From: a virus
Virus genome (UHGV): UHGV-0365264
Reading direction: 5' to 3' (one strand)
Length of the DNA: 10,300 nt
In this document: one piece after another, positions 1-10,300 of the stretch
Position numbering within the stretch: the stretch's first letter is position 1
Layout of the letters: every line of letters begins with the position of its first letter
The notes under the pieces: generated by a model
The model's database searches: none
The model's input: only the letters and a program-made list of their open reading frames with translations
What the model was told of the DNA's origin: nothing
Position numbers and translations under genes: made by a program

Positions 1-285
1 TAGTGGTTTACCGCTGGCGCTTTTACCCTGTCCCTGCCGGATGAATAACAGATTGCCATTTTTCACCGACGCAATAGCACCGTACTGGCGCGCCAGCCGC
101 ATCAGAAAACTGCCGTCACTCTCATTGGTCTGGTCTATATGTTCCACGGGTTTATCTGACAGGTCTTTACCCAATGCCATCTTCAGTTTGTGCCGCACAG
201 CTATTTCCTTCACCACTTTCCCGACGGTGGTCTTGTGCCACGACTTTTCACGGCGGGTACAGTAGCTGCACGACTCACCATCGCT
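1..285 (-). pseudogene. D: Fragment of P2 gpD-like tail protein (late control gene D family); N-terminal part missing, C-terminal part continues beyond window start
   Basis: Minus-strand translation reads ...RREKSWHKTTVGKVVKEIAVRHKLKMALGKDLSDKPVEHIDQTNESDGSFLMRLARQYGAIASVKNGNLLFIRQGQGKSASGKPL, which matches the central region of P2 gpD as I recall it (RREESWH...HIDQSQESD..FL.RLA...SVK.G.LLF.R.GQG..ASGK). An in-frame TGA at 286-288 lies 9 codons upstream of the first matching residues, and no gpD N-terminal sequence is seen in any frame. Confidence 0.5.
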
Positions 286-563
286 TCACCGCCTTTTGCG
301 GGAAGCGCCAAAGGATGCAACGGTGGAAGCTCTGCTGGCGCGGCAGCAACCCCCATCATTCCGGCGACAACGGCAGCCAGTGCAGCTGTATTTCTCCGGC
401 TGGTCACGTTTGCCGGGCCGTTAACAATTTCCGGCCCGTTTTCACCGACGATGCCAAACTGCCCGCGCGGGATATAGCCGCCGCTGTCATACATCCCCGC
501 AAAGCCATATCCCCATGACGGAAAATCACCCGATGGCATCATCACTTTACCGTCTGCATTCAT
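210..563 (-). pseudogene. Tail tape measure protein C-terminal fragment (gpT-like remnant)
   Basis: Frame open from 615 to the TGA at 210-212. It contains GYGFAGMYDSGGYIPRGQFGIVGENGPEIVNGPANVTS, a Gly-rich segment with a VGE.GPE-type motif typical of tape measure C-termini. Only about 100 aa are present, overlapping the 3' end of the M-like ORF and the 5' edge of the gpD-like fragment in other frames. Confidence 0.4.
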
Positions 564-954
564 CCGCCATTTCTTCCGCCAGAACGGTCTGCACGTTACG
601 GTTGCCCAGCGGCATCACCCAGCCATGGCGCAGCGCATGACGCCCGATTTCCAGCGCACCGGCATAATCACCGGCGTCGATACGCCACAGCATCACGTAC
701 ATCAGCACGTCATCCTGCTGCGCACCTCCGGCAGCCAGCACGCCCTCCGCCCAGGCGGCATACTTCGGCAGAAGCTCCACCTTGATTGCCGCCTTTTTCA
801 CGGTGGACTGGATACCCTTAAGGCGGCGGCGGTCTTCTGCCAGCTGCAGCAGCATCAGGTCATAGCCGGACGCATGGCGAACACTGCCGCCCTCCCGGGC
901 GGCCTGTTCGGCCTGAATGCGCAGGCGGTGCTGCCGTGCGGGACTCAGGCTCAT
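547..954 (-). CDS. M: Terminase small (endonuclease) subunit, gpM-like; apparently C-terminally truncated (135 aa versus about 247 aa in P2)
   Basis: Position immediately downstream of the capsid gene in O-N-M order. Start is preceded by GAGGAG with a 6-nt spacer. N-terminal region is Arg/Ala-rich like the gpM family. ORF ends at TAA 547-549, where tape-measure-like sequence begins in another frame. Confidence 0.65.
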   Translation of the reverse strand: MSLSPARQHRLRIQAEQAAREGGSVRHASGYDLMLLQLAEDRRRLKGIQSTVKKAAIKVELLPKYAAWAEGVLAAGGAQQDDVLMYVMLWRIDAGDYAGALEIGRHALRHGWVMPLGNRNVQTVLAEEMADECRR

Positions 955-957
955 GCG

Positions 958-2052
958 TTACTCCTCAGTTTCTGTTTCGGCGGGTTCTTCCACAGGCGCA
1001 GACTGCACCGCAGCTGGCTCGCTGAAGTCACCGATAGTGATGTTTTCGACCAAGGCCGCGCAGCGGTAGTCTTCAATCACATACGCTTCGTTGACGGATT
1101 CGAAGTTCTCAATCCGGTCACGTTTCGGGTTGTCGATAACAGAACGGCGGCGGGTGTCCTCCTGCCAGTAGATGGACAGGTTATCCAGACGGGTGATCAG
1201 CAGGGCATTAGCCGGGAAGAACGGCGCACGCACCGCCTGCAGGCCGCCCATGCGTTTCTGGCTGATAATCAGATCGGCGGCGATTTTCTCGCTGTTTTCC
1301 TGCTCTTTGTTAACCAGCGGGAAATACTTATCGGACAGCAACTCGCGGCTGCAGATAACAACCAGCTCATCATCATCCTGATACACCACGTCGATCAGCT
1401 CGTTAACCGCATCCATCACCACGGCGTCCAGGTTGGTATAGTCGCCGCCCTTGCCCACCTTTACCGCGCCTGCGGTGGTGGTGCCGTCCTGGGTGGTGCT
1501 GCCCATAACGTGGTCCGGCGCGTCTTCGCGGATTTTCTGCAGCCAGCCCTTATTCACGTCCTGCAGCAGCGGGTTTTCTGCGCGGTTGGAGGTTTTGGCG
1601 CGCTTCACTCCGTTAAAGCCGATCATAATGCGGTCCAGCGCCTGGCGCTTGACAATGGCGTTACGGATACGCACCTGGAAGTCCTGAAATTTCGCCCACA
1701 GGTCCAGCTTTGCGTAGGTCAGCACCGTGTCAAAGTTGGTCTGTTCGCATTTATATTCCACGTCCTCCATCAGCATCGGATCGGTAGGTTCGCGCTCTTT
1801 GGTGGTGGTGTCGGTGGTTCCGGCAATGGTGGAGCCAACGCCCAGGCCAAGCAACTGGCCGGACTGTTCCGCAACCGGCGTGATGTTAATCAGCGTCAGA
1901 AAAGCGGCGGACTGCTGGATCTGGTCTTCCAGCGTCTGCTGCACGGACGGGTCCACGGTGAACTTGCTGGAAAGTTCTTCCACTTCCACGTTGTTCAGGC
2001 GTGCCAGCTGCTGCAGGTAGGCGTTAAAGGCAAAGCGGGTATTCTTTTTCAT
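958..2052 (-). CDS. N: Major capsid protein, P2 gpN family
   Basis: 364-aa ORF. N-terminus MKKNTRFAFNAYLQQLARLNN...KFTVDPSVQQTLE and internal KGGDYTNLDAVVMDA, VICSRELLSDKYFPLVNKEQENSEKIAADLIISQKRMG and LITRLDNLSIYWQ are colinear with P2 gpN as recalled. AGGAG lies upstream of the ATG. Confidence 0.93.
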   Translation of the reverse strand: MKKNTRFAFNAYLQQLARLNNVEVEELSSKFTVDPSVQQTLEDQIQQSAAFLTLINITPVAEQSGQLLGLGVGSTIAGTTDTTTKEREPTDPMLMEDVEYKCEQTNFDTVLTYAKLDLWAKFQDFQVRIRNAIVKRQALDRIMIGFNGVKRAKTSNRAENPLLQDVNKGWLQKIREDAPDHVMGSTTQDGTTTAGAVKVGKGGDYTNLDAVVMDAVNELIDVVYQDDDELVVICSRELLSDKYFPLVNKEQENSEKIAADLIISQKRMGGLQAVRAPFFPANALLITRLDNLSIYWQEDTRRRSVIDNPKRDRIENFESVNEAYVIEDYRCAALVENITIGDFSEPAAVQSAPVEEPAETETEE

Positions 2053-2068
2053 CGGGTTTTATGCTCCT

Positions 2069-2902
2069 TCAGCAATTGGTCAGGGTGCCTGCCGGTGCGT
2101 CACCGCCCGGCGCGCGCTGGCGGTAATCTTTACGACTGTCTTCACGGCTCAGCTGCTGGTGAAGCTCGGCAAAGGCGGCCTGCTGCTCCTGCAGCGAGGA
2201 TTCAAGCTCAGAAATGCGCGCGTCCTGGTCGGACAGGGATTTATCAGTGCGCTCGCTCAGGTTCTGCTGCTCGGTGGCGACCAGCTCAACGGCTTTGTGC
2301 ACGTCTGAGAAACGCGCATCATCGGTCTGCTCTTTTTTGGTGAACAGGGCGGTGACGCGGGCAAAGAGGGACGGCTTTTCGTCCTGGGTTTCTTCCAGTT
2401 CGATCAGCGTTTCTTCGGCGGCGGTAAACAGGTTTTCAGGACTCTGCTTGCGGTTTGCCAGCGGGTTGTGCGCGGCGCTGGCGCTGAAGGTCAGCATCTC
2501 AGTGCCCAGGCTCGCCGGATCGTCAGTGGCGGCCAGGCCCACAAGGTAGGCTTTGCCGGTGTCGGCAAACTTCGGGCTGACTTCCATGGAGGTGAAAAGC
2601 TTCTGGCCTTTCTTGACCAGTTCAACCAGTGCGCTGGTCGGCTCCACGTCGGCATACAGCGCCATCTTGCCCTTCAGGGGGCCATCCTGAATTTCTTCAG
2701 CAACCAGCGCCGTCACCCTGCCGTAGCGGTTGAAGGTGCTTTCCGGCAGATATGACTTGATGTGCTCAAGGTTAATCAGGGCGGTGTAGACCTCCGGGTT
2801 GTAGCTGGCCGCCATCTGCTCCAGCCATTCGCGCTGGATTTCGCGTCCGTCGGTGGTGGCACCTTCCACCCCAATGCGGAAACGCTTTGTTTTCACTGTC
2901 AT
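2069..2902 (-). CDS. O: Capsid scaffolding protein, P2 gpO family
   Basis: 277-aa ORF directly upstream of N on the same strand, with an acidic, coiled-coil-rich C-terminal half. GGAG lies 8 nt upstream of the ATG. Position is that of P2 O, transcribed divergently from P. Confidence 0.88.
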   Translation of the reverse strand: MTVKTKRFRIGVEGATTDGREIQREWLEQMAASYNPEVYTALINLEHIKSYLPESTFNRYGRVTALVAEEIQDGPLKGKMALYADVEPTSALVELVKKGQKLFTSMEVSPKFADTGKAYLVGLAATDDPASLGTEMLTFSASAAHNPLANRKQSPENLFTAAEETLIELEETQDEKPSLFARVTALFTKKEQTDDARFSDVHKAVELVATEQQNLSERTDKSLSDQDARISELESSLQEQQAAFAELHQQLSREDSRKDYRQRAPGGDAPAGTLTNC

Positions 2903-3041
2903 GCCGTGCTCCGTTAGAAATTACTTACTTGAGCCTTATGTTTGCGGTGATGGGGGAGTGAAACAACGCGCGGCGCTTGTACGGTCAGCCACACAAACCG
3001 CAGCCGGGGAAAGCCGCGGGGCAAGGCCGTATGTTTGGGCC
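2903..3041. promoter_or_regulatory. Divergent late promoter region between O and P, with a TGT-N12-ACA element (2978-2995) of the Ogr/Delta activator type
   Basis: 139-bp intergenic region between divergent O and P starts. tgtacggtcagccacaca at 2978-2995 fits TGT-N12-ACA. Its centre is about 85 bp upstream of the O start codon, compatible with a -55 activator site for leftward transcription. Confidence 0.35.
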
Positions 3042-4808
3042 ATGAACACGACAATGACCCCCGCAGACCTCGATCCCCGTCGGCAGGCCATGCTGCTGTA
3101 CTTTCAGGGATACCGCGTAGCCCGCATTGCAGAAATGCTGGGCGAGAAAGTTGCAACCGTTCACAGCTGGAAGAAGCGCGACAAGTGGGGCGAGTATGGG
3201 CCGCTGGATCAGATGCAGCTCACCACCGCCGCGCGCTACTGCCAGCTCATTATGAAGGAGCAGAAAGAAGGGAAAGACTTCAAGGAAATTGACCTGCTGG
3301 CGCGCCAGTCAGAGCGCCACGCCCGGATCGGTAAATTTAACGATGGCGGCAACGAGGCAGATTTAAATCCGAAGGTTGCCAACCGCAACAAAGGCCCGCG
3401 CCGCAAGCCCGAAAAGAACGTTTTTACCGACGAACAGATCGAGAAGCTGCAGGAGGTTTTCCACGGCTCGATGTTCGCCTACCAGCGCCACTGGTACGAG
3501 GCAGGCAACCGCCACCGTATCCGCAACTTGCTCAAATCGCGCCAGATCGGGGCGACCTTCTTTTTTGCCCGGGAGGCGCTGATTGACGCCATCACCACCG
3601 GCCGCAACCAGATTTTTCTTTCAGCCAGCAAGGCACAGGCGCACGTCTTCAAGCAGTACATCATCGACTTTGCAAAAGAGGTGGATGTGGAGCTGAAGGG
3701 CGACCCGATGACGCTCAGCAACGGCGCGTGCCTGTACTTCCTCGGCACCAACGCCCGCACGGCGCAGAGCTACCACGGCAACCTGTACCTGGATGAATAT
3801 TTCTGGATACCGAAATTCCAGGAGCTGCGCAAGGTGGCCTCCGGCATGGCCATTCACAAGAAATGGCGGCAGACCTACTTCTCCACGCCGTCCAGCCTGA
3901 CCCACAGCGCCTATCCGTTCTGGTCCGGCGCCCTGTTCAACCGGGGCCGCGCCAAAGCGGACAAGGTGGATATTGACCTGACCCACGGCAATCTGGCCCC
4001 GGGCCTGCTTTGCCCGGACGGCCAGTACCGCCAGATCGTCACCGTGGAGGATGCGGTGCGCGGCGGCTGTAACCTGTTCGATCTGGATCAGCTGCGGATG
4101 GAGTACAGCCCGGACGAATACCAGAACCTGCTGATGTGCGAATTCATTGACGATCTGGCGTCAGTGTTCCCGCTGAGCGAGCTGCAGGCGTGCATGGTGG
4201 ACAGCTGGGAAGTCTGGTCAGATTTTCAGGCGCTGGCGCTGCGCCCGTTTGGCTGGCGTGAAGTCTGGATCGGCTATGACCCGGCGAAAGGTACGCAGAA
4301 CGGCGACAGCGCCGGATGCGTGGTGGTGGCACCACCCACAGTGCCGGGCGGCAAGTTCCGCATTCTGGAGCGGCACCAGTGGCGCGGGATGGACTTCCGC
4401 GCCCAGGCTGACGCCATTAAAAAGCTGACCCAGCAATATAACGTGACCTATATCGGCATCGACTCGACCGGCGTCGGCCACGGCGTCTATGAGAACGTTA
4501 AGGCGTTCTTCCCTGCCGTGCGCGAATTCGTTTACAACCCCAACGTTAAAAACGCCCTGGTGCTCAAGGCATACGACATTATCAGCCACCGGCGCCTGGA
4601 GTTTGACGCCGGGCACACCGACATTGCGCAGTCCTTTATGGCAATCCGCCGCACCACTACCGCCAGCGGCAACCGCCCCACCTACGAAGCCAGCCGCAGC
4701 GAAGAAGCCAGCCATGCAGATCTGGCCTGGGCAACGATGCACGCACTGTTTAACGAACCGCTGCAGGGCGAAGCCGCCAATACCAGCAACATTGTGGAGA
4801 TTTTTTGA
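3042..4808 (+). CDS. P: Terminase large (ATPase) subunit, P2 gpP family
   Basis: Long ORF whose N-terminus MNTTMTPADLDPRRQAMLLYFQGYRVARIAEMLGE is gpP-like. It has Walker-type and nuclease-like segments and is the first gene of a P-Q operon as in P2. Start chosen at ATG 3042 rather than the upstream in-frame ATG 2853, which would overlap O; no strong SD, so the start is uncertain. Confidence 0.88.
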   Translation: MNTTMTPADLDPRRQAMLLYFQGYRVARIAEMLGEKVATVHSWKKRDKWGEYGPLDQMQLTTAARYCQLIMKEQKEGKDFKEIDLLARQSERHARIGKFNDGGNEADLNPKVANRNKGPRRKPEKNVFTDEQIEKLQEVFHGSMFAYQRHWYEAGNRHRIRNLLKSRQIGATFFFAREALIDAITTGRNQIFLSASKAQAHVFKQYIIDFAKEVDVELKGDPMTLSNGACLYFLGTNARTAQSYHGNLYLDEYFWIPKFQELRKVASGMAIHKKWRQTYFSTPSSLTHSAYPFWSGALFNRGRAKADKVDIDLTHGNLAPGLLCPDGQYRQIVTVEDAVRGGCNLFDLDQLRMEYSPDEYQNLLMCEFIDDLASVFPLSELQACMVDSWEVWSDFQALALRPFGWREVWIGYDPAKGTQNGDSAGCVVVAPPTVPGGKFRILERHQWRGMDFRAQADAIKKLTQQYNVTYIGIDSTGVGHGVYENVKAFFPAVREFVYNPNVKNALVLKAYDIISHRRLEFDAGHTDIAQSFMAIRRTTTASGNRPTYEASRSEEASHADLAWATMHALFNEPLQGEAANTSNIVEIF

Positions 4809-5833
4809 TGGGCAAGAGGAATAAAAACCGCGCTGCAGCTAAACAGAACGTTCAACAGAGCAGCGGCATATCTGCAGAAGCATTCAGCTTTGGCGACCCG
4901 ATCCCGGTACTGGACCGCCGGGAATTGCTGGATTATGTGGAGTGCGTGCAGATGGACCGCTGGTATGAGCCGCCGGTGAGTTTTGACGGGCTGGCGCGCA
5001 CCTACCGCGCCGCCGTGCATCACAGCTCACCGATTGCCGTTAAGCGTGACATTCTCAGCAGCACCTATATCCCGCACCGCCTGCTCAGCCAGCAGGCTTT
5101 TTCCCGTTTCGTTCAGGACTATCTGGTATTCGGCAATGCCTACCTTGAGAAACGCACCAACCGGCTCGGTGGCGTTCTCTCGCTGGAGCCCGCCCTGGCG
5201 AAATATACCCGCCGCGGCGTTGACCTGGACACTTACTGGTTTGTGCAGTACGGATTCACCACGCAGCCCTACGAATTCACGCCGGGAAGCATTTTCCATC
5301 TTCTTGAACCTGATATTAACCAGGAAATATACGGGCTGCCCGGCTACCTCTCAGCCATTCCGTCCGCGCTGCTCAACGAGTCCGCCACGCTGTTTCGCCG
5401 CAAATATTATATTAACGGCAGCCATGCGGGCTTTATCATGTACATGACCGACGCCGCGCAGAACCAGGAGGACGTAAACAACATCCGCCAGGCCATGAAA
5501 AGCGCCAAGGGCCCGGGCAACTTCCGCAACCTGTTCATGTACTCTCCCAACGGCAAAAAAGACGGGATCCAGATCATCCCGCTGTCAGAGGTGGCGGCGA
5601 AAGATGAATTTCTGAATATCAAGAATGTGAGCCGCGATGACATGATGGCTGCGCACCGCGTACCGCCGCAGATGATGGGGATTATGCCAAATAATGTCGG
5701 GGGTTTTGGGGATGTAGAAAAAGCGAGTAAAGTTTTTGTTCGAAATGAGCTCTATCCATTGCAGAAAAAACTAAGAGAGCTTAACACTTGGCTTGGAGAA
5801 GAAATCATTAAGTTTGACGAATACATTTTATAA
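4808..5833 (+). CDS. Q: Portal protein, P2 gpQ family
   Basis: N-terminus MGKRNKNRAAAKQNVQQSSGISAEAFSFGDPIPVLDRRELLDYVEC and later segments (FHLLEPDINQEIYGLPGYLSA, ATLFRRKYYINGSHAGFIMY, IIPLSEVAAKDEF, KVFVRNELYPLQ) are colinear with P2 gpQ as recalled. ATG 4808 overlaps the P stop TGA 4806-4808. Confidence 0.9.
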   Translation: MGKRNKNRAAAKQNVQQSSGISAEAFSFGDPIPVLDRRELLDYVECVQMDRWYEPPVSFDGLARTYRAAVHHSSPIAVKRDILSSTYIPHRLLSQQAFSRFVQDYLVFGNAYLEKRTNRLGGVLSLEPALAKYTRRGVDLDTYWFVQYGFTTQPYEFTPGSIFHLLEPDINQEIYGLPGYLSAIPSALLNESATLFRRKYYINGSHAGFIMYMTDAAQNQEDVNNIRQAMKSAKGPGNFRNLFMYSPNGKKDGIQIIPLSEVAAKDEFLNIKNVSRDDMMAAHRVPPQMMGIMPNNVGGFGDVEKASKVFVRNELYPLQKKLRELNTWLGEEIIKFDEYIL

Positions 5834-5839
5834 AAGAAT

Positions 5840-5863
5840 AGGCCGCAGAAAGCGGCCTTTATT
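5840..5863. terminator. Bidirectional rho-independent terminator between convergent Q and the 454-aa cargo gene
   Basis: aggccgc-agaaa-gcggcct stem-loop followed by TTTATT on the plus strand and a T-rich tract on the minus strand. It lies between the Q stop (5833) and the cargo gene stop (5878). Confidence 0.55.
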
Positions 5864-5877
5864 ATTCCCCAAAAGTA

Positions 5878-7242
5878 TTATTCTTCTTCATCATGTACAA
5901 CTTTTTTTTCGGGAATATCTTCATTTATCTTCTTCGTTCTTGTCAGTCCCGCCTTTCCCAGAACAGCATCCATTTTATCACCACCTTTTTCCACCAAACT
6001 TTTGAAACCATCAGAGGATAACATTTCCATTATTGGAGATGAATGAGCGGTTTCCTCAACGAATCTCAACGGTGGCTCTTCAAGTCGAGTAAGTGCATTG
6101 CCAAAAAGACGCTGTGAGAAATCAGAGTCTAATTGCATCGCTTCTCTACGATAACCTTCATAGGCTTTAGAAACGCTAGCTTTGAATTCATAATCTTCGG
6201 CCAATCTGAATCGTTGACCAATTTGCTTAGTAGCTAACCAAGCAAACCAAAGCGGGGCACCTACACTGAGAATCGATAAGATAAGCTGTATGGTTAGTTT
6301 GATACCAGAGGCATTAGGATTCGATAAGTATGCCTCCAGAGCATGCAATCGAGTATAACCAACAACGGCTCCAGCCCCAAGGGCTGCGATTAAGCCTGCT
6401 ACCCATAGCCTGATACTGGCGTTAAGTTTTCTTGCTTTATCTTCAAAAGCTCCAGCTAAACCTTTAGATGTCGTTGTTCTAAAGGCCTCCTCACATTTAT
6501 CGATATATCCTTGAGCTTCAACCTTAAGTTCAGCCAAATAATCGTTAGCTTCTTTCGCTACATTTTTATGTAATTGTGCAATCGTATTTTTTATGTCATT
6601 TAACTCTTTACCATCAAGCTTTGCCTGTTCTAATCTTTCATTGATTGAATCAGCATTTTTCTCTGAAAGTTCATTTAATTGATTAATTTCCTCATTTGTC
6701 TCCCTAAGAGATTTTAAGGTTGTGGGTAAACTCTCTGCAGCATCATAAGCTTCATTGATTACATTTATCTTGCTATCGAGGTCACCACTTTTCTCCTCAA
6801 TAGTTTGAAGATTAGATTGATACAAACCTAGTCTGTTTATTATTTTTTTTGGAAGAAGTTCTTTGTTATTTAAAACTTCAAACGAAAATAGCTCATTTAT
6901 TTCCGTACTTATATAAAGCATAGAAACAAAATACGATGCAATGGCTGGCCCCGATACATTAGTATTGCTGTGGTTTAAATGGTTTAAATTGGGTTGTGCT
7001 TTATCTAACGAATAAATTATAGAATCTATAATTTCAACGTCATGTTCAGAAGGTTCAAACTTAGTCATCTTGCCTATCTTTTCAGATAGCATTTTCGGGA
7101 AAGATACTAAATCTTCTGAATGTAAGAAGGGATATTGATAATTGTTAACATCAATAAAATCTTGCTGTGGAAAACTTATTGCACTAATAGTGGTATGTAA
7201 ATTATCCAGTTTTTCTTTTAGTTGGTTCAACTTTTCATTCAT
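5878..7242 (-). CDS. Hypothetical cargo protein, 454 aa: coiled-coil N-terminal and central region, two predicted transmembrane helices, about 100-aa acidic C-terminal tail
   Basis: Long ORF in markedly AT-rich DNA. The two hydrophobic helices are LWVAGLIAALGAGAVVGY and IKLTIQLILSILSVGAPLWFAWLA. Heptad-like Lys/Glu/Leu/Asn-rich stretches precede them. A possible promoter (TTGTAA, 18-nt spacer, TACAGT) lies upstream. Confidence 0.7.
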   Translation of the reverse strand: MNEKLNQLKEKLDNLHTTISAISFPQQDFIDVNNYQYPFLHSEDLVSFPKMLSEKIGKMTKFEPSEHDVEIIDSIIYSLDKAQPNLNHLNHSNTNVSGPAIASYFVSMLYISTEINELFSFEVLNNKELLPKKIINRLGLYQSNLQTIEEKSGDLDSKINVINEAYDAAESLPTTLKSLRETNEEINQLNELSEKNADSINERLEQAKLDGKELNDIKNTIAQLHKNVAKEANDYLAELKVEAQGYIDKCEEAFRTTTSKGLAGAFEDKARKLNASIRLWVAGLIAALGAGAVVGYTRLHALEAYLSNPNASGIKLTIQLILSILSVGAPLWFAWLATKQIGQRFRLAEDYEFKASVSKAYEGYRREAMQLDSDFSQRLFGNALTRLEEPPLRFVEETAHSSPIMEMLSSDGFKSLVEKGGDKMDAVLGKAGLTRTKKINEDIPEKKVVHDEEE

Positions 7243-7325
7243 GGCTTCGCCTTTGATTACTGTATGTAAAAGATAAACGTCCTTACAATATCACACTCAT
7301 GACAACTATCAGAGGGTAAGCGCGC

Positions 7326-7347
7326 GCTCGTATCCCCGCCACGCCTG
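7326..7347 (-). other. Candidate cos (cohesive end) site, P2-like
   Basis: The reverse complement of 7327-7345 is GGCGTGGCGGGGATACGAG, matching the recalled P2/P4 cohesive end GGCGAGGCGGGGAAAGCAC at 14 of 19 positions. It sits in a GC-rich island inside AT-rich cargo, in the A-to-Q interval where P2 cos lies. Confidence 0.3.
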
Positions 7348-7394
7348 CCCGCTTTATGTAGTGGTTTTCATGCAGGTGCATGATCTACGCAAAA

Positions 7395-7414
7395 GCCCGC
7401 CAGTTCTGGCGGGC
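7395..7414 (-). terminator. GC-rich hairpin followed by a T-run on the minus strand (terminator-like)
   Basis: gcccgcca-gttc-tggcgggc stem-loop. On the minus strand it is followed by TTTTGCG. Confidence 0.4.
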
Positions 7415-7687: not shown

Positions 7688-8113
7688 ATGAAAAGCTTTT
7701 ACGTATTAATTTTAATTCTGGTTGCAAGCTTTGTTAGCGTCCCAGTTCAGGCGGTAACAGCTAAAAACTATGAGAAAGGAACTAAAGCTCAACAGAAATC
7801 AATATCTTACCTTTCATGTGCATTCTATGGCAGTAGCACACAATTAGATCCTAGCTACACGGAGCAAGTACCTACAGCCGATATCAAGATATTACAGAAA
7901 GCAGCTTACCACGCTTACAACGATGCGCTCTCATACTTTGGCTATGAGGAACCAGATCACGAACAACGCATAATTGATTATGCTGAATTTGTGGCGTCGC
8001 AAGAAGCTGTGTTATGGGATAAGCCGGGAATGAATGGAAAGCAGGTAACACTAATTGCTCGTTCTCTCTACAATGAGAGTAACTGTAACTTGTTACTGGA
8101 CTCAATTAAGTAG
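7688..8113 (+). CDS. Hypothetical secreted or periplasmic protein, 141 aa, with N-terminal signal peptide
   Basis: MKSFYVLILILVASFVSVPVQA|VTA has the n-h-c organisation of a signal peptide with an AxA-type cleavage site. GAGG lies 7 nt upstream of the ATG. AT-rich codon usage like the neighbouring cargo gene. Two Cys in the mature part. Confidence 0.7.
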   Translation: MKSFYVLILILVASFVSVPVQAVTAKNYEKGTKAQQKSISYLSCAFYGSSTQLDPSYTEQVPTADIKILQKAAYHAYNDALSYFGYEEPDHEQRIIDYAEFVASQEAVLWDKPGMNGKQVTLIARSLYNESNCNLLLDSIK

Positions 8114-8272: not shown

Positions 8273-8506
8273 TTAATGCAGCCAGCTGTCGTCTTCCCAC
8301 ACCTTCTGCATAATCTTCATCACTTGTTTTCTTTCTTCGTCCAGTTGCAGTCCGGTCAGTTCCACACCGTTAGAGCTACCTTTGCGGATGCGAATTACCA
8401 TTTTGGGATACAGGGGGCGCAGATTGCGGTAAAGCTCGGATTCAAGGGCGTCCAGGGTAGACTGGCTAATCTTCTGCTCTTTATCGATCATTATTTCAAT
8501 GCGCAT
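8273..8506 (-). CDS. DinI-family protein (DNA-damage-inducible protein I-like; possible Tum C-terminal-type module)
   Basis: MRIEIMIDKEQKISQSTLDALESELYRNLRPLYPKMVIRIRKGSSNGVELTGLQLDEERKQVMKIMQKVWEDDSWLH aligns along its length with E. coli DinI as recalled (MRIEVTIAK...ALAGELSRR...QETWESADDW). GAGGTG RBS upstream. Start taken at internal ATG 8504-8506 rather than the track start at 8578. Confidence 0.8.
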   Translation of the reverse strand: MRIEIMIDKEQKISQSTLDALESELYRNLRPLYPKMVIRIRKGSSNGVELTGLQLDEERKQVMKIMQKVWEDDSWLH

Positions 8507-8516
8507 AAAGGTCACC

Positions 8517-8705
8517 TCAGCTGATGACATCCATTGAGCGGTTGTATTCGTGGGTTCTGATTTTTGCCATGAGTTCATCAGTCAATTCAGAAACCCACTG
8601 CAGAGCCAGCCCCTTCTCTTCATCACTACACTCACTAGCCGCTACAAGCTTAAGAAAAAAATCAATGCGCTGGAGCTTCAAAGACTCCAAAAAATAGTCC
8701 TGCAT
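8517..8705 (-). CDS. Small hypothetical protein (62 aa), first gene of the LexA-box operon; possible antirepressor (Tum N-terminal-like) module
   Basis: AGGAGG lies 5 nt upstream of the ATG. Its TGA stop overlaps the RBS of the DinI-like gene, suggesting translational coupling. Sits immediately downstream of the LexA box. Confidence 0.6.
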   Translation of the reverse strand: MQDYFLESLKLQRIDFFLKLVAASECSDEEKGLALQWVSELTDELMAKIRTHEYNRSMDVIS

Positions 8706-8857: not shown

Positions 8858-10300
8858 TTAATACAGGTTCCGCCACTTATCATCTTCCTGCAAACGCTGG
8901 TTCCGATAGAAGATACGCAGGCCTGCTCCTGACGGAATACTGCCGCCGCGAAGGAGTAAATCGACCTCTTTCTCGCTGCCATCAAATCCTCTGGACTTCA
9001 GTTCATAGACGAGCTGCTGTCGCTGATGGTCTGTAATTCGCTGTTTGTAGTCTTTACGCCGTTTCGGTTTCACCAGGCGTAACCTTGCAGCCAGTTCCCG
9101 GCGCTCTTTTTTGCTCATACTGTGCAAGTAATCGTGCAACTCCTTGTCATCCATGCGGGTAATGTCCGTTCTGGTGTCCCCATCAGCTGATTTATCTTTC
9201 TCCTGTTGGTTCAAATTTTCAGCAAGGGGACAGTTATTGCCACGAGTCCAAGGGGACAGTTATTGCCACGAGTCCAAGGGGCGCAAGCGCCCTGGTCGGC
9301 TGCCGCCTCCTGAACGTCAACGGCCTTACGAACCATTTTCCACTTCACTACATGAGTGCAGATCTTGCCCTCTGCAATGGGTGACCAGATGCCATAAATA
9401 CGAATACCGTGATCACCATAGGCGGTCGGCTCTTCGTTGATTTCATAAGCGGTTCTGATCAAGTGATATTTGCGGGGAACCAACACGCCGCCCTGCTTCA
9501 TAATGTAGGTGGCAAAACAGCCAGCATCAGCAGCAGCCAGAATGGCATCAAGACGCGGATCATCCAGTACCGGCGCACCTGCTTTTTTGTCACCCTGCTG
9601 CCTTGCCGCCTGACCAGCCAGCAATCGCAGTTCACGGTAAGCCTGACGCCCCGGAATGCCAAAGAAGCGGAATTGCTGAACACGATGCAGAGACGCCCAG
9701 GCATTAACGTATTCAGCGTTATCACGCAGGGATTTACCCGTTTCCTTGCTGATCTCGCCAGCCAGACCACGCCCGTCAATGTTCTTACTGATGTATTTCG
9801 CGATGTAGCTTGTCGGCGTTCCTTTGCGCGGGTTAATCAGCTCAGACTTAAAGCGTGGCCCCGTGTTATTGCCCAGTTCCTCGCGGTCTTCACGGATGGC
9901 AAACTTACGCAGTAATGCAGTGATGGCGCGGCGGTCTTTTTTACGCATGAAGCACATGAGATGCCAGTGCACAGTACCGTCATGATGCGGCTCAGCCACC
10001 CGCACGCCATACCACCGCAATCCGGCTTTGTGCATCGCCTTACGAAATGCAGCAAACATGCCGACCAGATAATCACTGCTTTGTCTTACCGTCGCATTTG
10101 TCCAGGTCGGGTTTGGTCTGCCGTTATTGAGCGTGGAATGGAAACGTGACGGACAGGTGATGGTGTAGAAAACGGCGCAGTCACCGCGCATTTCCGCGAT
10201 AAGCTCCAGACCTTTAACGCAGGCCATCATCTCATTGCGGCGATGTGCCGGGTTGCTGCTGCTGGCGTTTACCACATCTTCCATATCCAGCGTGTCTCCG
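8858..10300 (-). pseudogene. A: Rolling-circle replication initiator, P2 gpA family, split by a +26-bp tandem duplication; 5' end lies beyond the window
   Basis: All three RCR motifs are present: FYTITCP (motif 1), TVHWHLMCF (HUH) and SYIAKYISK (paired catalytic Tyr). The reading frame ends at TGA 9211-9213 just after the duplicated 26-mer. Removing one 26-bp copy joins this frame exactly to the downstream 118-codon ORF (8858-9214). Confidence 0.7.
9223..9281. repeat. Tandem direct repeat, 26 bp x 2 plus a 7-bp partial third copy
   Basis: caaggggacagttattgccacgagtc occurs at 9223-9248 and again identically at 9249-9274, followed by caagggg at 9275-9281. Confidence 0.95.

Follow-up and report, generated by a model that had tools for sequence, protein, structure and literature searches.

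A horizontally exchanged cargo gene of a P2/186-like prophage as a candidate single-gene, membrane-acting defence protein

The virus genome UHGV-0365264 (10,300 nucleotides, referred to here as the window) covers the part of a P2/186-like prophage that runs from the packaging to the replication genes, as judged from its open reading frame (ORF) list and from Pfam labels on identical loci. It carries a complete ORF at 5878-7242 (minus strand; 454 amino acids plus stop), which stands alone and belongs to an unnamed protein family. This gene is a self-contained, horizontally exchanged cargo of the prophage; its predicted properties make it a good candidate for a new single-gene, membrane-acting defence protein. 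We lean modestly towards an anti-phage defence or exclusion function of some kind, exerted at the inner membrane. This reading is favoured because the gene is a solo, low-GC, mobile gene of a family found in two defence hotspots, and related phages carry known or candidate defence genes in its place.

A cargo gene between the portal gene and cos

The cargo ORF starts with an ATG, has AAAGG 9 nt upstream, and encodes an M1 which is nearly invariant across homologues. Ratios of non-synonymous to synonymous substitution rates (dN/dS), computed pairwise between alleles that are 85-97% identical, are 0.01-0.18 in the structured parts of the protein; the ORF is therefore a real gene. A protein 100% identical to its product (P0001) occurs on 189 contigs.

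The GC content of the cargo ORF is 36.1%, against 58.2% for the structural genes at 1-5800 of the window. The left-hand boundary of the cassette is the portal gene Q (4805-5833, plus strand; Pfam Phage_portal in identical loci). Q and the cargo ORF converge on a bidirectional, intrinsic terminator-like hairpin at 5840-5858, which is common to both genes; it has a 7-bp stem with six G-C pairs and is flanked by T-rich tails on both strands. The right-hand boundary is the cohesive-end (cos) region at 7305-7400. This block is conserved across P2-like phages (45 records) and E. coli (1,277 records), and it contains the cohesive-end-like 19-mer GGCGTGGCGGGGATACGAG at 7345-7327 (minus strand), which resembles the P2/186 cohesive end. 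Since the block is conserved and contains this sequence, the cargo gene can be placed between the portal gene and cos. About 85 nt separate its ATG from the cohesive-end sequence. When six alleles are aligned, conservation covers the cos element and ends at GCGCGCGC (~7318); from there, the cassettes diverge up to each ATG. The cargo gene occupies the whole interval from the portal terminator to cos. The first-pass annotation of this DNA had described an AT-rich cargo gene on a GC-rich backbone, convergent with Q at a shared terminator and lying between the portal gene and a cos-like site; composition, hairpin and conserved block bear out this description.

A possible extended -10 promoter element, TGTGATATT, was read by eye at 7287-7295 (minus strand), ~45 nt upstream of the ATG; it is weak. 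The motif TGTGATAWT recurs upstream of the gene in the 85% and 68% alleles. A sigma-70 scan of the region upstream of the cargo ATG detected no promoter.

The interval between gpA and gpQ next to cos is a P2 defence hotspot (Rousset et al. 2022, PMC9122126), as confirmed by Vassallo et al. 2022 (PMC9519451); the latter study also identifies the Z/fun locus as a second P2 defence hotspot. The cargo gene lies between gpA and gpQ, next to cos, and its earlier assignment to the interval that P2-like phages use for anti-phage cargo agrees with both studies. The cargo protein itself (WP_089647510) appears in Table S5A of PMC9122126 under the label 'hypothetical'; in the parts of the supplements covered here, its sequence is absent and it does not figure among the systems that were cloned or curated.

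The sub-slot between Q and cos was viewed in six related elements, and four distinct cargoes from it were scored against PADLOC. In Fels-2, the slot is occupied by STM2723.1, which matches AbiU (E=2.7e-112). In vB_EcoM-813R9 it holds a Hypoth_Ymh (HEPN) protein matching PD-Lambda-3_B (2.4e-14). E. coli E308 carries a KAP-type P-loop NTPase matching PDC-S49 (1.7e-25), with the same annotated product in 07D18CPO002; E. coli CUVET17-972 carries an S1 peptidase and a small protein matching PDC-M35A/B (4.5e-94 and 3.1e-58), with the same products in SF-468. By these PADLOC matches, all four alternative occupants examined count as known or candidate defence genes. Each is on the same strand as the query gene, converges on Q and starts next to cos. 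The AbiU match of Fels-2 STM2723.1 (L170, 1735-3432) is full-length; the deposited record for this gene says 'hypothetical protein'.

The content of the slot also varies within the family, as it holds a second, 65% identical allele of the cargo gene in some strains. Any family allele is present in 58 of 5,426 complete E. coli genomes (~1%); the cos region is present in 1,272. The allele of the window is found in one complete E. coli genome, NCTC 13148. The 65% identical allele (463 amino acids, same slot) is found in 13, including strain HS. A more distant allele is found in about 44, one of which, RS571, was examined: here the protein has 433 amino acids and is 40% identical to the query (E=3e-96; L177, 6718-8019), and its gene lies between the tail-fibre-assembly and tail-sheath genes, which is the Z/fun locus. 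One protein family therefore uses both P2 defence hotspots. In E. coli, the identical protein is always encoded between Q and cos; beyond cos, the next gene differs from locus to locus (141 amino acids, 225 amino acids, DUF8087 or none).

Across the family, the gene is solo. A conserved partner gene was sought in 96 non-redundant (70% identity) groups and none was found; no neighbouring family occurs in more than 11 of the 96, and those that recur belong to the P2 backbone (portal 11, gpA 10, terminase 9). Median intergenic distances on its upstream and downstream sides are 174 and 112 nt. Compared with its flanks, the gene has a lower GC content in 89 of 92 loci (median difference, -8.7 points). 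Among the 146 immediate neighbours are portal proteins, integrases, resolvases, UmuC/UmuD and methylases. Defence genes are also represented: GmrSD, Old, NsnA, PD-T4-2, PD-Lambda-5, type III restriction-modification, NERD+UvrD and PDC-S02. The setting differs from element to element. In the Providencia temperate phage PSTCR8lys, a member lies between early-region and late-region genes, where the annotation continues with hypotheticals, 'structural protein P5' and terminase, in this order; in a Delftia prophage, a member lies at the prophage end, after a lysozyme gene; in Pectobacterium, a member lies in an AlpA-bearing island.

Family, architecture and constraint

The family is large and spans many phyla, and it is unnamed. 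The only real matches of the query are to phrog_34659 (E=2.8e-86) and, second, phrog_30912 (E=1.4e-12). These represent true homology, so the family has already been clustered as a phage protein group; neither group has a function, name or description attached. More than 1,500 family proteins are present in a 90%-clustered collection. An exhaustive scan of 1.84 billion representatives gives 1,402 matches at E<=1e-3 and 426 at E<=1e-30 (50%-identity clusters); among the best 150, nearly all have 400-490 amino acids and align over most of their length. Peptide-pattern scans place the family in 160 GTDB species, with hosts among the alpha-, beta- and gamma-Proteobacteria, Bacteroidota, Leptospira, Verrucomicrobia, Planctomycetes, Nitrospinota and others. 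Members are also found on 73 IMG/VR viral contigs and 10 plasmids. All names given at source are 'hypothetical' or coiled-coil misnomers (ATP synthase subunit b, YoxC, gas vesicle protein).

The cargo product matches no named family in sequence searches. Pfam, NCBIfam and PADLOC searches with the query, with 72 family members and with the N- and C-terminal halves return coiled-coil-type noise only, and PDB sequence and profile searches return nothing beyond such noise; the earlier statement that the protein could not be assigned to a named family holds up. The best scores in PADLOC-DB v2.0.0 (LmuB, 5.4e-6; LeoBC, 3.7e-5) are partial and of coiled-coil type, with the same pattern across the 72 members. 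Fold searches return generic helical hairpins only, including PspA, ESCRT-III and BAR. A search with the N-terminal 190 residues for alternative architectures found four partial proteins only and was uninformative. No paper on the family came up in literature searches that used accession numbers, the PHROG id or a description of the protein.

The protein was modelled with AlphaFold2 using a 72-sequence alignment (mean predicted local distance difference test score, pLDDT, 76.9), and the whole product is predicted to be helical. Residues 1-125 (6868-7242, minus strand) form a variable N-terminal helical bundle (pLDDT 80-93) with helices at 3-20, 42-57, 66-81 and 94-118; this bundle is a putative sensor or regulatory domain. 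Residues 126-250 (6493-6867, minus strand) form a long cytoplasmic helix or coiled-coil stalk, as indicated by the model, by periodicity and by conservation. After a further helix at 132-151, a single continuous helix of ~150 residues (156-306; pLDDT up to 96) runs into the first transmembrane (TM) segment. Hydrophobic periodicity in residues 156-200 is 3.5 residues. The term 'coiled coil' refers here to this periodicity, to the 150-residue model helix and to the coiled-coil-type database noise, with no dedicated predictor.

Residues 251-410 (6013-6492, minus strand) form the conserved core. It comprises a pre-TM helix carrying TTSKGLAGAF, TM1 (277-299; 6346-6414, minus strand), a short loop, TM2 (314-338; 6229-6303, minus strand), a post-TM2 helix and the motif RLEExPLR. 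Both TM segments were placed from hydropathy (Kyte-Doolittle 19-mer means, with maxima in the hydrophobic stretches up to 1.84). In the model, a helix at 313-368 comprises TM2 plus a cytoplasmic continuation, and shorter helices extend to about 430; a model of the core only (residues 241-454) is an antiparallel hairpin, 242-306 against 313-369. The charged, variable C-terminal tail (411-454; 5881-6012, minus strand) is predicted to be disordered (pLDDT <50 from residue 432).

The 14-residue loop between the TM segments contains no K or R and each 15-residue cytoplasmic flank contains three; in addition, the 276-residue N-terminal part has no signal peptide. Given this charge distribution and the lack of a signal peptide, the topology is likely N-in/C-in, which would put both large parts on the cytoplasmic side. 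This predicted topology leaves ~14 residues in the periplasm and ~400 in the cytoplasm. Two closely spaced hydrophobic helices followed by a charged tail had been noticed in the first-pass annotation and are found at these positions. Its further proposal, a coiled-coil sensor joined to a membrane-disrupting module, survives in part: the helical, two-TM layout stands, and the sensor role and membrane disruption are unsupported.

Constraint is distributed very unevenly along the protein. In distant members, identity to the query is 21% in the N-terminal domain (1-125), 26% in the stalk (126-250), 54% in the core (251-410) and 14% in the tail (411-454), which also has the highest column entropy. 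For the core, pairwise dN/dS is 0.01-0.04, for the N-terminal domain 0.08-0.18 and for the tail ~0.3; the value of 0.46 for the stalk comes from a single 97%-identical pair with few substitutions there. The membrane hairpin and its cytoplasmic collar are the most constrained part of the family. Nineteen of the 20 invariant columns lie within the core; they include W280, L288, W332, W335, F345, E349, D350, Y351, K354, G363, R386, E389, P391 and R393. The post-TM2 helix (339-368; KQIGQRFRLAEDYxFKAS..AYEGYR) is near-invariant, with a column entropy of 0.5 bit. There was no gene-wide signal of diversifying selection on the N-terminal domain (pairwise dN/dS 0.08-0.18, from few close pairs). Natural variants of 360-380 amino acids on viral contigs lack the N-terminal bundle and retain stalk and core.

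Two features of the membrane hairpin stand out. TM1 carries a ladder of small residues at i+4 spacing, G283-A287-G291-G295; in 72 sequences, position 283 is G in 54, A in 6 and S in 3, position 287 is A in 57 and S in 12, position 291 is G in 50 and A in 17, and position 295 is G in 70. In TM2, one face of the helix bears a polar stripe, formed by Q319 (Q/N/H/E in 62 of 72), S323 (S in 58) and S326 (S in 61); this is followed by G328-A329-P330 and then by the invariant W332 and W335. Features of this kind may allow TM helices to assemble into oligomers around a polar lumen.

The twentieth invariant column is A165, in a conserved stalk patch at residues 161-180 (INxAYxAAExLPTxLxxL; 6703-6762). 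This patch is at the membrane-distal end of the long helix and has no obvious role. The latter also applies to C249 (6496-6498), a nearly invariant residue in a CEEAYR motif just before the core.

The surrounding prophage

To the left of the cassette, the window contains the genes M (547-954), N (958-2052) and O (2069-2902), all on the minus strand, and P (to 4808, plus strand). To the right of cos are an ORF of 141 amino acids (7688-8113, plus strand), a DinI-like gene (8273-8578, minus strand; 101 amino acids from the first ATG), a 62-amino-acid ORF listed after the DinI-like gene and ahead of gene A, and the 3' part of the replication gene A (from 8858 onward, minus strand).

The product of the 141-amino-acid ORF, just right of cos, is WP_000834899, which belongs to phrog_7437, a group with no assigned function. 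It has a signal peptide-like N-terminus, MKSFYVLILILVASFVSVPVQA, and no PADLOC hit. This ORF is unchanged where the cargo between Q and cos is swapped (KAP NTPase, PDC-M35 or query gene), and WP_000834899 appears 32 times in Table S5A of Rousset et al. The DinI-like ORF is annotated with 77 amino acids in related records. Since its matches to PHROG and NCBIfam models start only at residues 18 and 25, translation probably begins at an internal codon.

In gene A, an extra tandem unit of 26 bp, CAAGGGGACAGTTATTGCCACGAGTC, at 9223-9281 breaks the reading frame, leaving two ORFs (9211-10284 and 8858-9214, minus strand). The repeat comprises 2.3 copies at 100% identity, and the intact 804-amino-acid gpA of a near-identical prophage has one copy fewer. 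When a 201-nt query covering this repeat is compared with complete E. coli genomes, the best matches span only 173-175 nt. The frameshifted gene suggests that this prophage would be unable to replicate. Decay is also seen in NCTC 13148 (L001, 18330-20131), where an IS1 lies in the portal gene and the tape-measure and integrase genes are truncated; within this decaying prophage, the cargo gene is intact.

Function and comparison with known systems

If the cargo protein is a defence protein, a mechanism can be proposed from its architecture. The variable N-terminal bundle and the stalk would restrain the protein, releasing it only on an infection cue from the cytoplasm; the conserved hairpins would then pack via the G/A ladder of TM1, and the Gln/Ser/Ser stripe of TM2 would line a polar path in the assembled oligomer. 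Such an oligomer could leak ions, or depolarise or permeabilise the membrane, and the infecting phage would be stopped at the cost of the cell, i.e. by abortive infection. This specific version, in which the family would be multi-phylum, single-protein immune effectors with a cytoplasmic helical sensor and stalk controlling an ion-conducting hairpin pore, is put forward tentatively and is rather doubtful. The pore would assemble from the cytoplasmic side out of a near-invariant unit in which a glycine-ladder TM and a polar-stripe TM stand between two juxtamembrane helices. If this is true, the pore-forming module would be a novel one, with no relationship to SLATT, holins or gasdermins, carried on phages, plasmids and islands.

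Several points weigh against a defence function or against this mechanism. No member of the family has a phenotype on record. PADLOC hits (LmuB, LeoBC, ZorA, JetC) are of coiled-coil type with no significant family match, and the fold searches return only generic helical hairpins. The promoter is a weak consensus match only, so expression of the cargo gene in the lysogen is putative. The N-terminal domain is under purifying, not visibly diversifying, selection. The extreme conservation of the cytoplasmic juxtamembrane helices is unusual for a simple membrane-disrupting hairpin, and conservation in the collar (E349, D350, K354, R386, E389, R393) could equally fit binding to a conserved host partner. 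Ordinary housekeeping genes also adjoin some members, e.g. recBCD in Luteimonas. Finally, a machine-learning predictor flagged only 15-32% of unknown P2 proteins as antiviral in a 2026 preprint (10.64898/2026.02.27.708500). In favour of a defence function, the same preprint reports that six of eight P4 hotspot loci of unknown function gave protection when tested. The query family is one of many such candidates in P2 hotspots.

Other functions can be considered for a membrane protein encoded at this position. In superinfection exclusion, a constitutive inner-membrane protein would block genome entry or an early membrane-associated step with no cell death; P22 SieA and T4 Imm act in this way, excluding phage at the membrane without killing the cell. 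The cargo protein is prophage-encoded, is predicted to lie in the inner membrane and comes from a locus of exclusion genes, with SieB among the cargo of the gpA-gpQ hotspot (Rousset Table S5A); its highly conserved membrane and juxtamembrane part would fit binding to a conserved membrane component of DNA entry. We nevertheless think exclusion of this kind unlikely: ~14 periplasmic residues against ~400 cytoplasmic ones offer little surface to an injecting phage, known superinfection exclusion proteins are small and have no similarity to the query, and the family spans phyla whose phages enter by very different routes. To about the same degree, we doubt that the gene is a moron outside defence, i.e. 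a membrane-associated lysogenic-conversion or fitness factor (envelope stress, membrane remodelling, colonisation). All that speaks for it is a set of generic matches to the PspA, ESCRT-III and BAR hairpins in fold searches, along with the housekeeping neighbourhoods of some members; those structures match no more closely than any long helical hairpin does, and the sporadic, low-GC spread on mobile genetic elements, together with the use of two P2 defence hotspots that also hold AbiU, HEPN and PDC genes, favours a function in conflict.

A role that serves the phage itself has the slimmest chance. The protein might time lysis, anchor replication or packaging at the membrane, or inhibit a membrane-bound host defence, and the gene does adjoin cos and the packaging genes; moreover, the PSTCR8lys member is upstream of late-region genes and the Delftia member follows a lysozyme gene. 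Against this, the gene is transcribed against the late Q-P operon and has its own terminator. It is dispensable, because most P2-like elements lack it (58 of the 5,426 E. coli genomes have any allele, against 1,272 with the cos region). Members on plasmids and at phage-free chromosomal sites oppose a packaging or lysis role, and the position differs among phages (Q-cos, Z/fun and the early-late interval of PSTCR8lys).

A defensive role, our preferred reading, would provide a function for a large unnamed family of at least 426 clusters (50% identity) in Proteobacteria, Bacteroidota, Spirochaetes and other phyla, a family missed entirely by current defence-annotation tools. If the protein is not defensive, it is a counter-example to guilt by location in P2 hotspots. 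Being a single gene with alleles in tractable strains such as E. coli HS, the candidate is cheap to test, and the strongly conserved juxtamembrane module presents clear targets for mutagenesis.

Some candidate identities were rejected in the course of the analysis. Homology to a chemoreceptor or a phage tail component, which the first-pass annotation had named as a counter-indication along with a lack of TM helices, is not found: matches of this kind are coiled-coil noise at E>=0.007, and hydropathy shows TM helices. For the chemoreceptor, a PDB-profile hit to methyl-accepting chemotaxis proteins (E=0.03) falls within the coiled-coil region and there is no Pfam MCPsignal hit; for a tail or tape-measure protein, the PHROG hits (E=0.007-0.09) all fall within the same region. 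A holin or lysis protein is rejected on size (454 amino acids), on position between portal and cos and on transcription against the late operon; in related loci, the P2 lysis genes are beyond gpX, far from the cargo gene. A role in cos function or packaging is rejected because members are also encoded away from cos, on plasmids and in chromosomes.

By architecture, the closest analogues are the two-TM effectors of CBASS, Pycsar and type III CRISPR systems (including Csx23 and Cam1) and the SLATT domains (SLATT/DUF4231). Like the query, these combine a cytoplasmic domain with a short TM hairpin which is thought to oligomerise and breach the membrane, and conserved juxtamembrane helices flank the TM segments. 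The query differs in that it is solo, with no signalling-enzyme partner, and has no recognisable nucleotide-binding domain. Membership of these families was tested directly. SLATT_1-5/DUF4231 gave no Pfam hit with the whole protein at E<=1, with the 72 members or with the C-terminal 205 residues at E<=10; DUF6161 gave none with the C-terminal 205 residues alone at E<=10. A signal-generating partner of the SLATT type (SMODS, SLOG, TIR etc.) was rejected since no neighbour is conserved in the 96 groups. Family and fold searches found no homology of the cargo product to proven abortive-infection effectors.

The 'helix - hydrophobic hairpin - helix' stalk and paddle of LeoBC, dynamin-like proteins and mitofusin also resembles the query, which has neither a GTPase domain nor LeoA. 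The LeoBC E-values are within the coiled-coil noise range of LmuB, JetC and ZorA, and the partial overlap with the hidden Markov model is a lead only. Membership of LeoBC (Eleos) or of the dynamin-like proteins was rejected, as no GTPase or P-loop family was found in Pfam or NCBIfam and the gene is solo. Pore-forming toxins of the ClyA type (ClyA, NheA/Hbl, YaxAB, AhlC) give fold scores no better than those of prefoldin, the PI3K iSH2 and BAR hairpins. In contrast to these toxins, the query is not secreted, has no signal peptide and would act from the cytoplasmic side.

With the other cargo of P2 hotspots (old, tin, Fels-2 AbiU, PDC-S49, PDC-M35), the gene shares its slot and orientation, from Q to cos; it is a self-contained, low-GC cassette swapped between otherwise near-identical prophages. 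The query has no sequence or fold relationship to any of them. The known cargo consists of nucleases, NTPases, HEPN proteins and proteases, whereas the query is predicted to be membrane-anchored and all-helical; if defensive, it would extend the known repertoire by a membrane effector of distinct structure.

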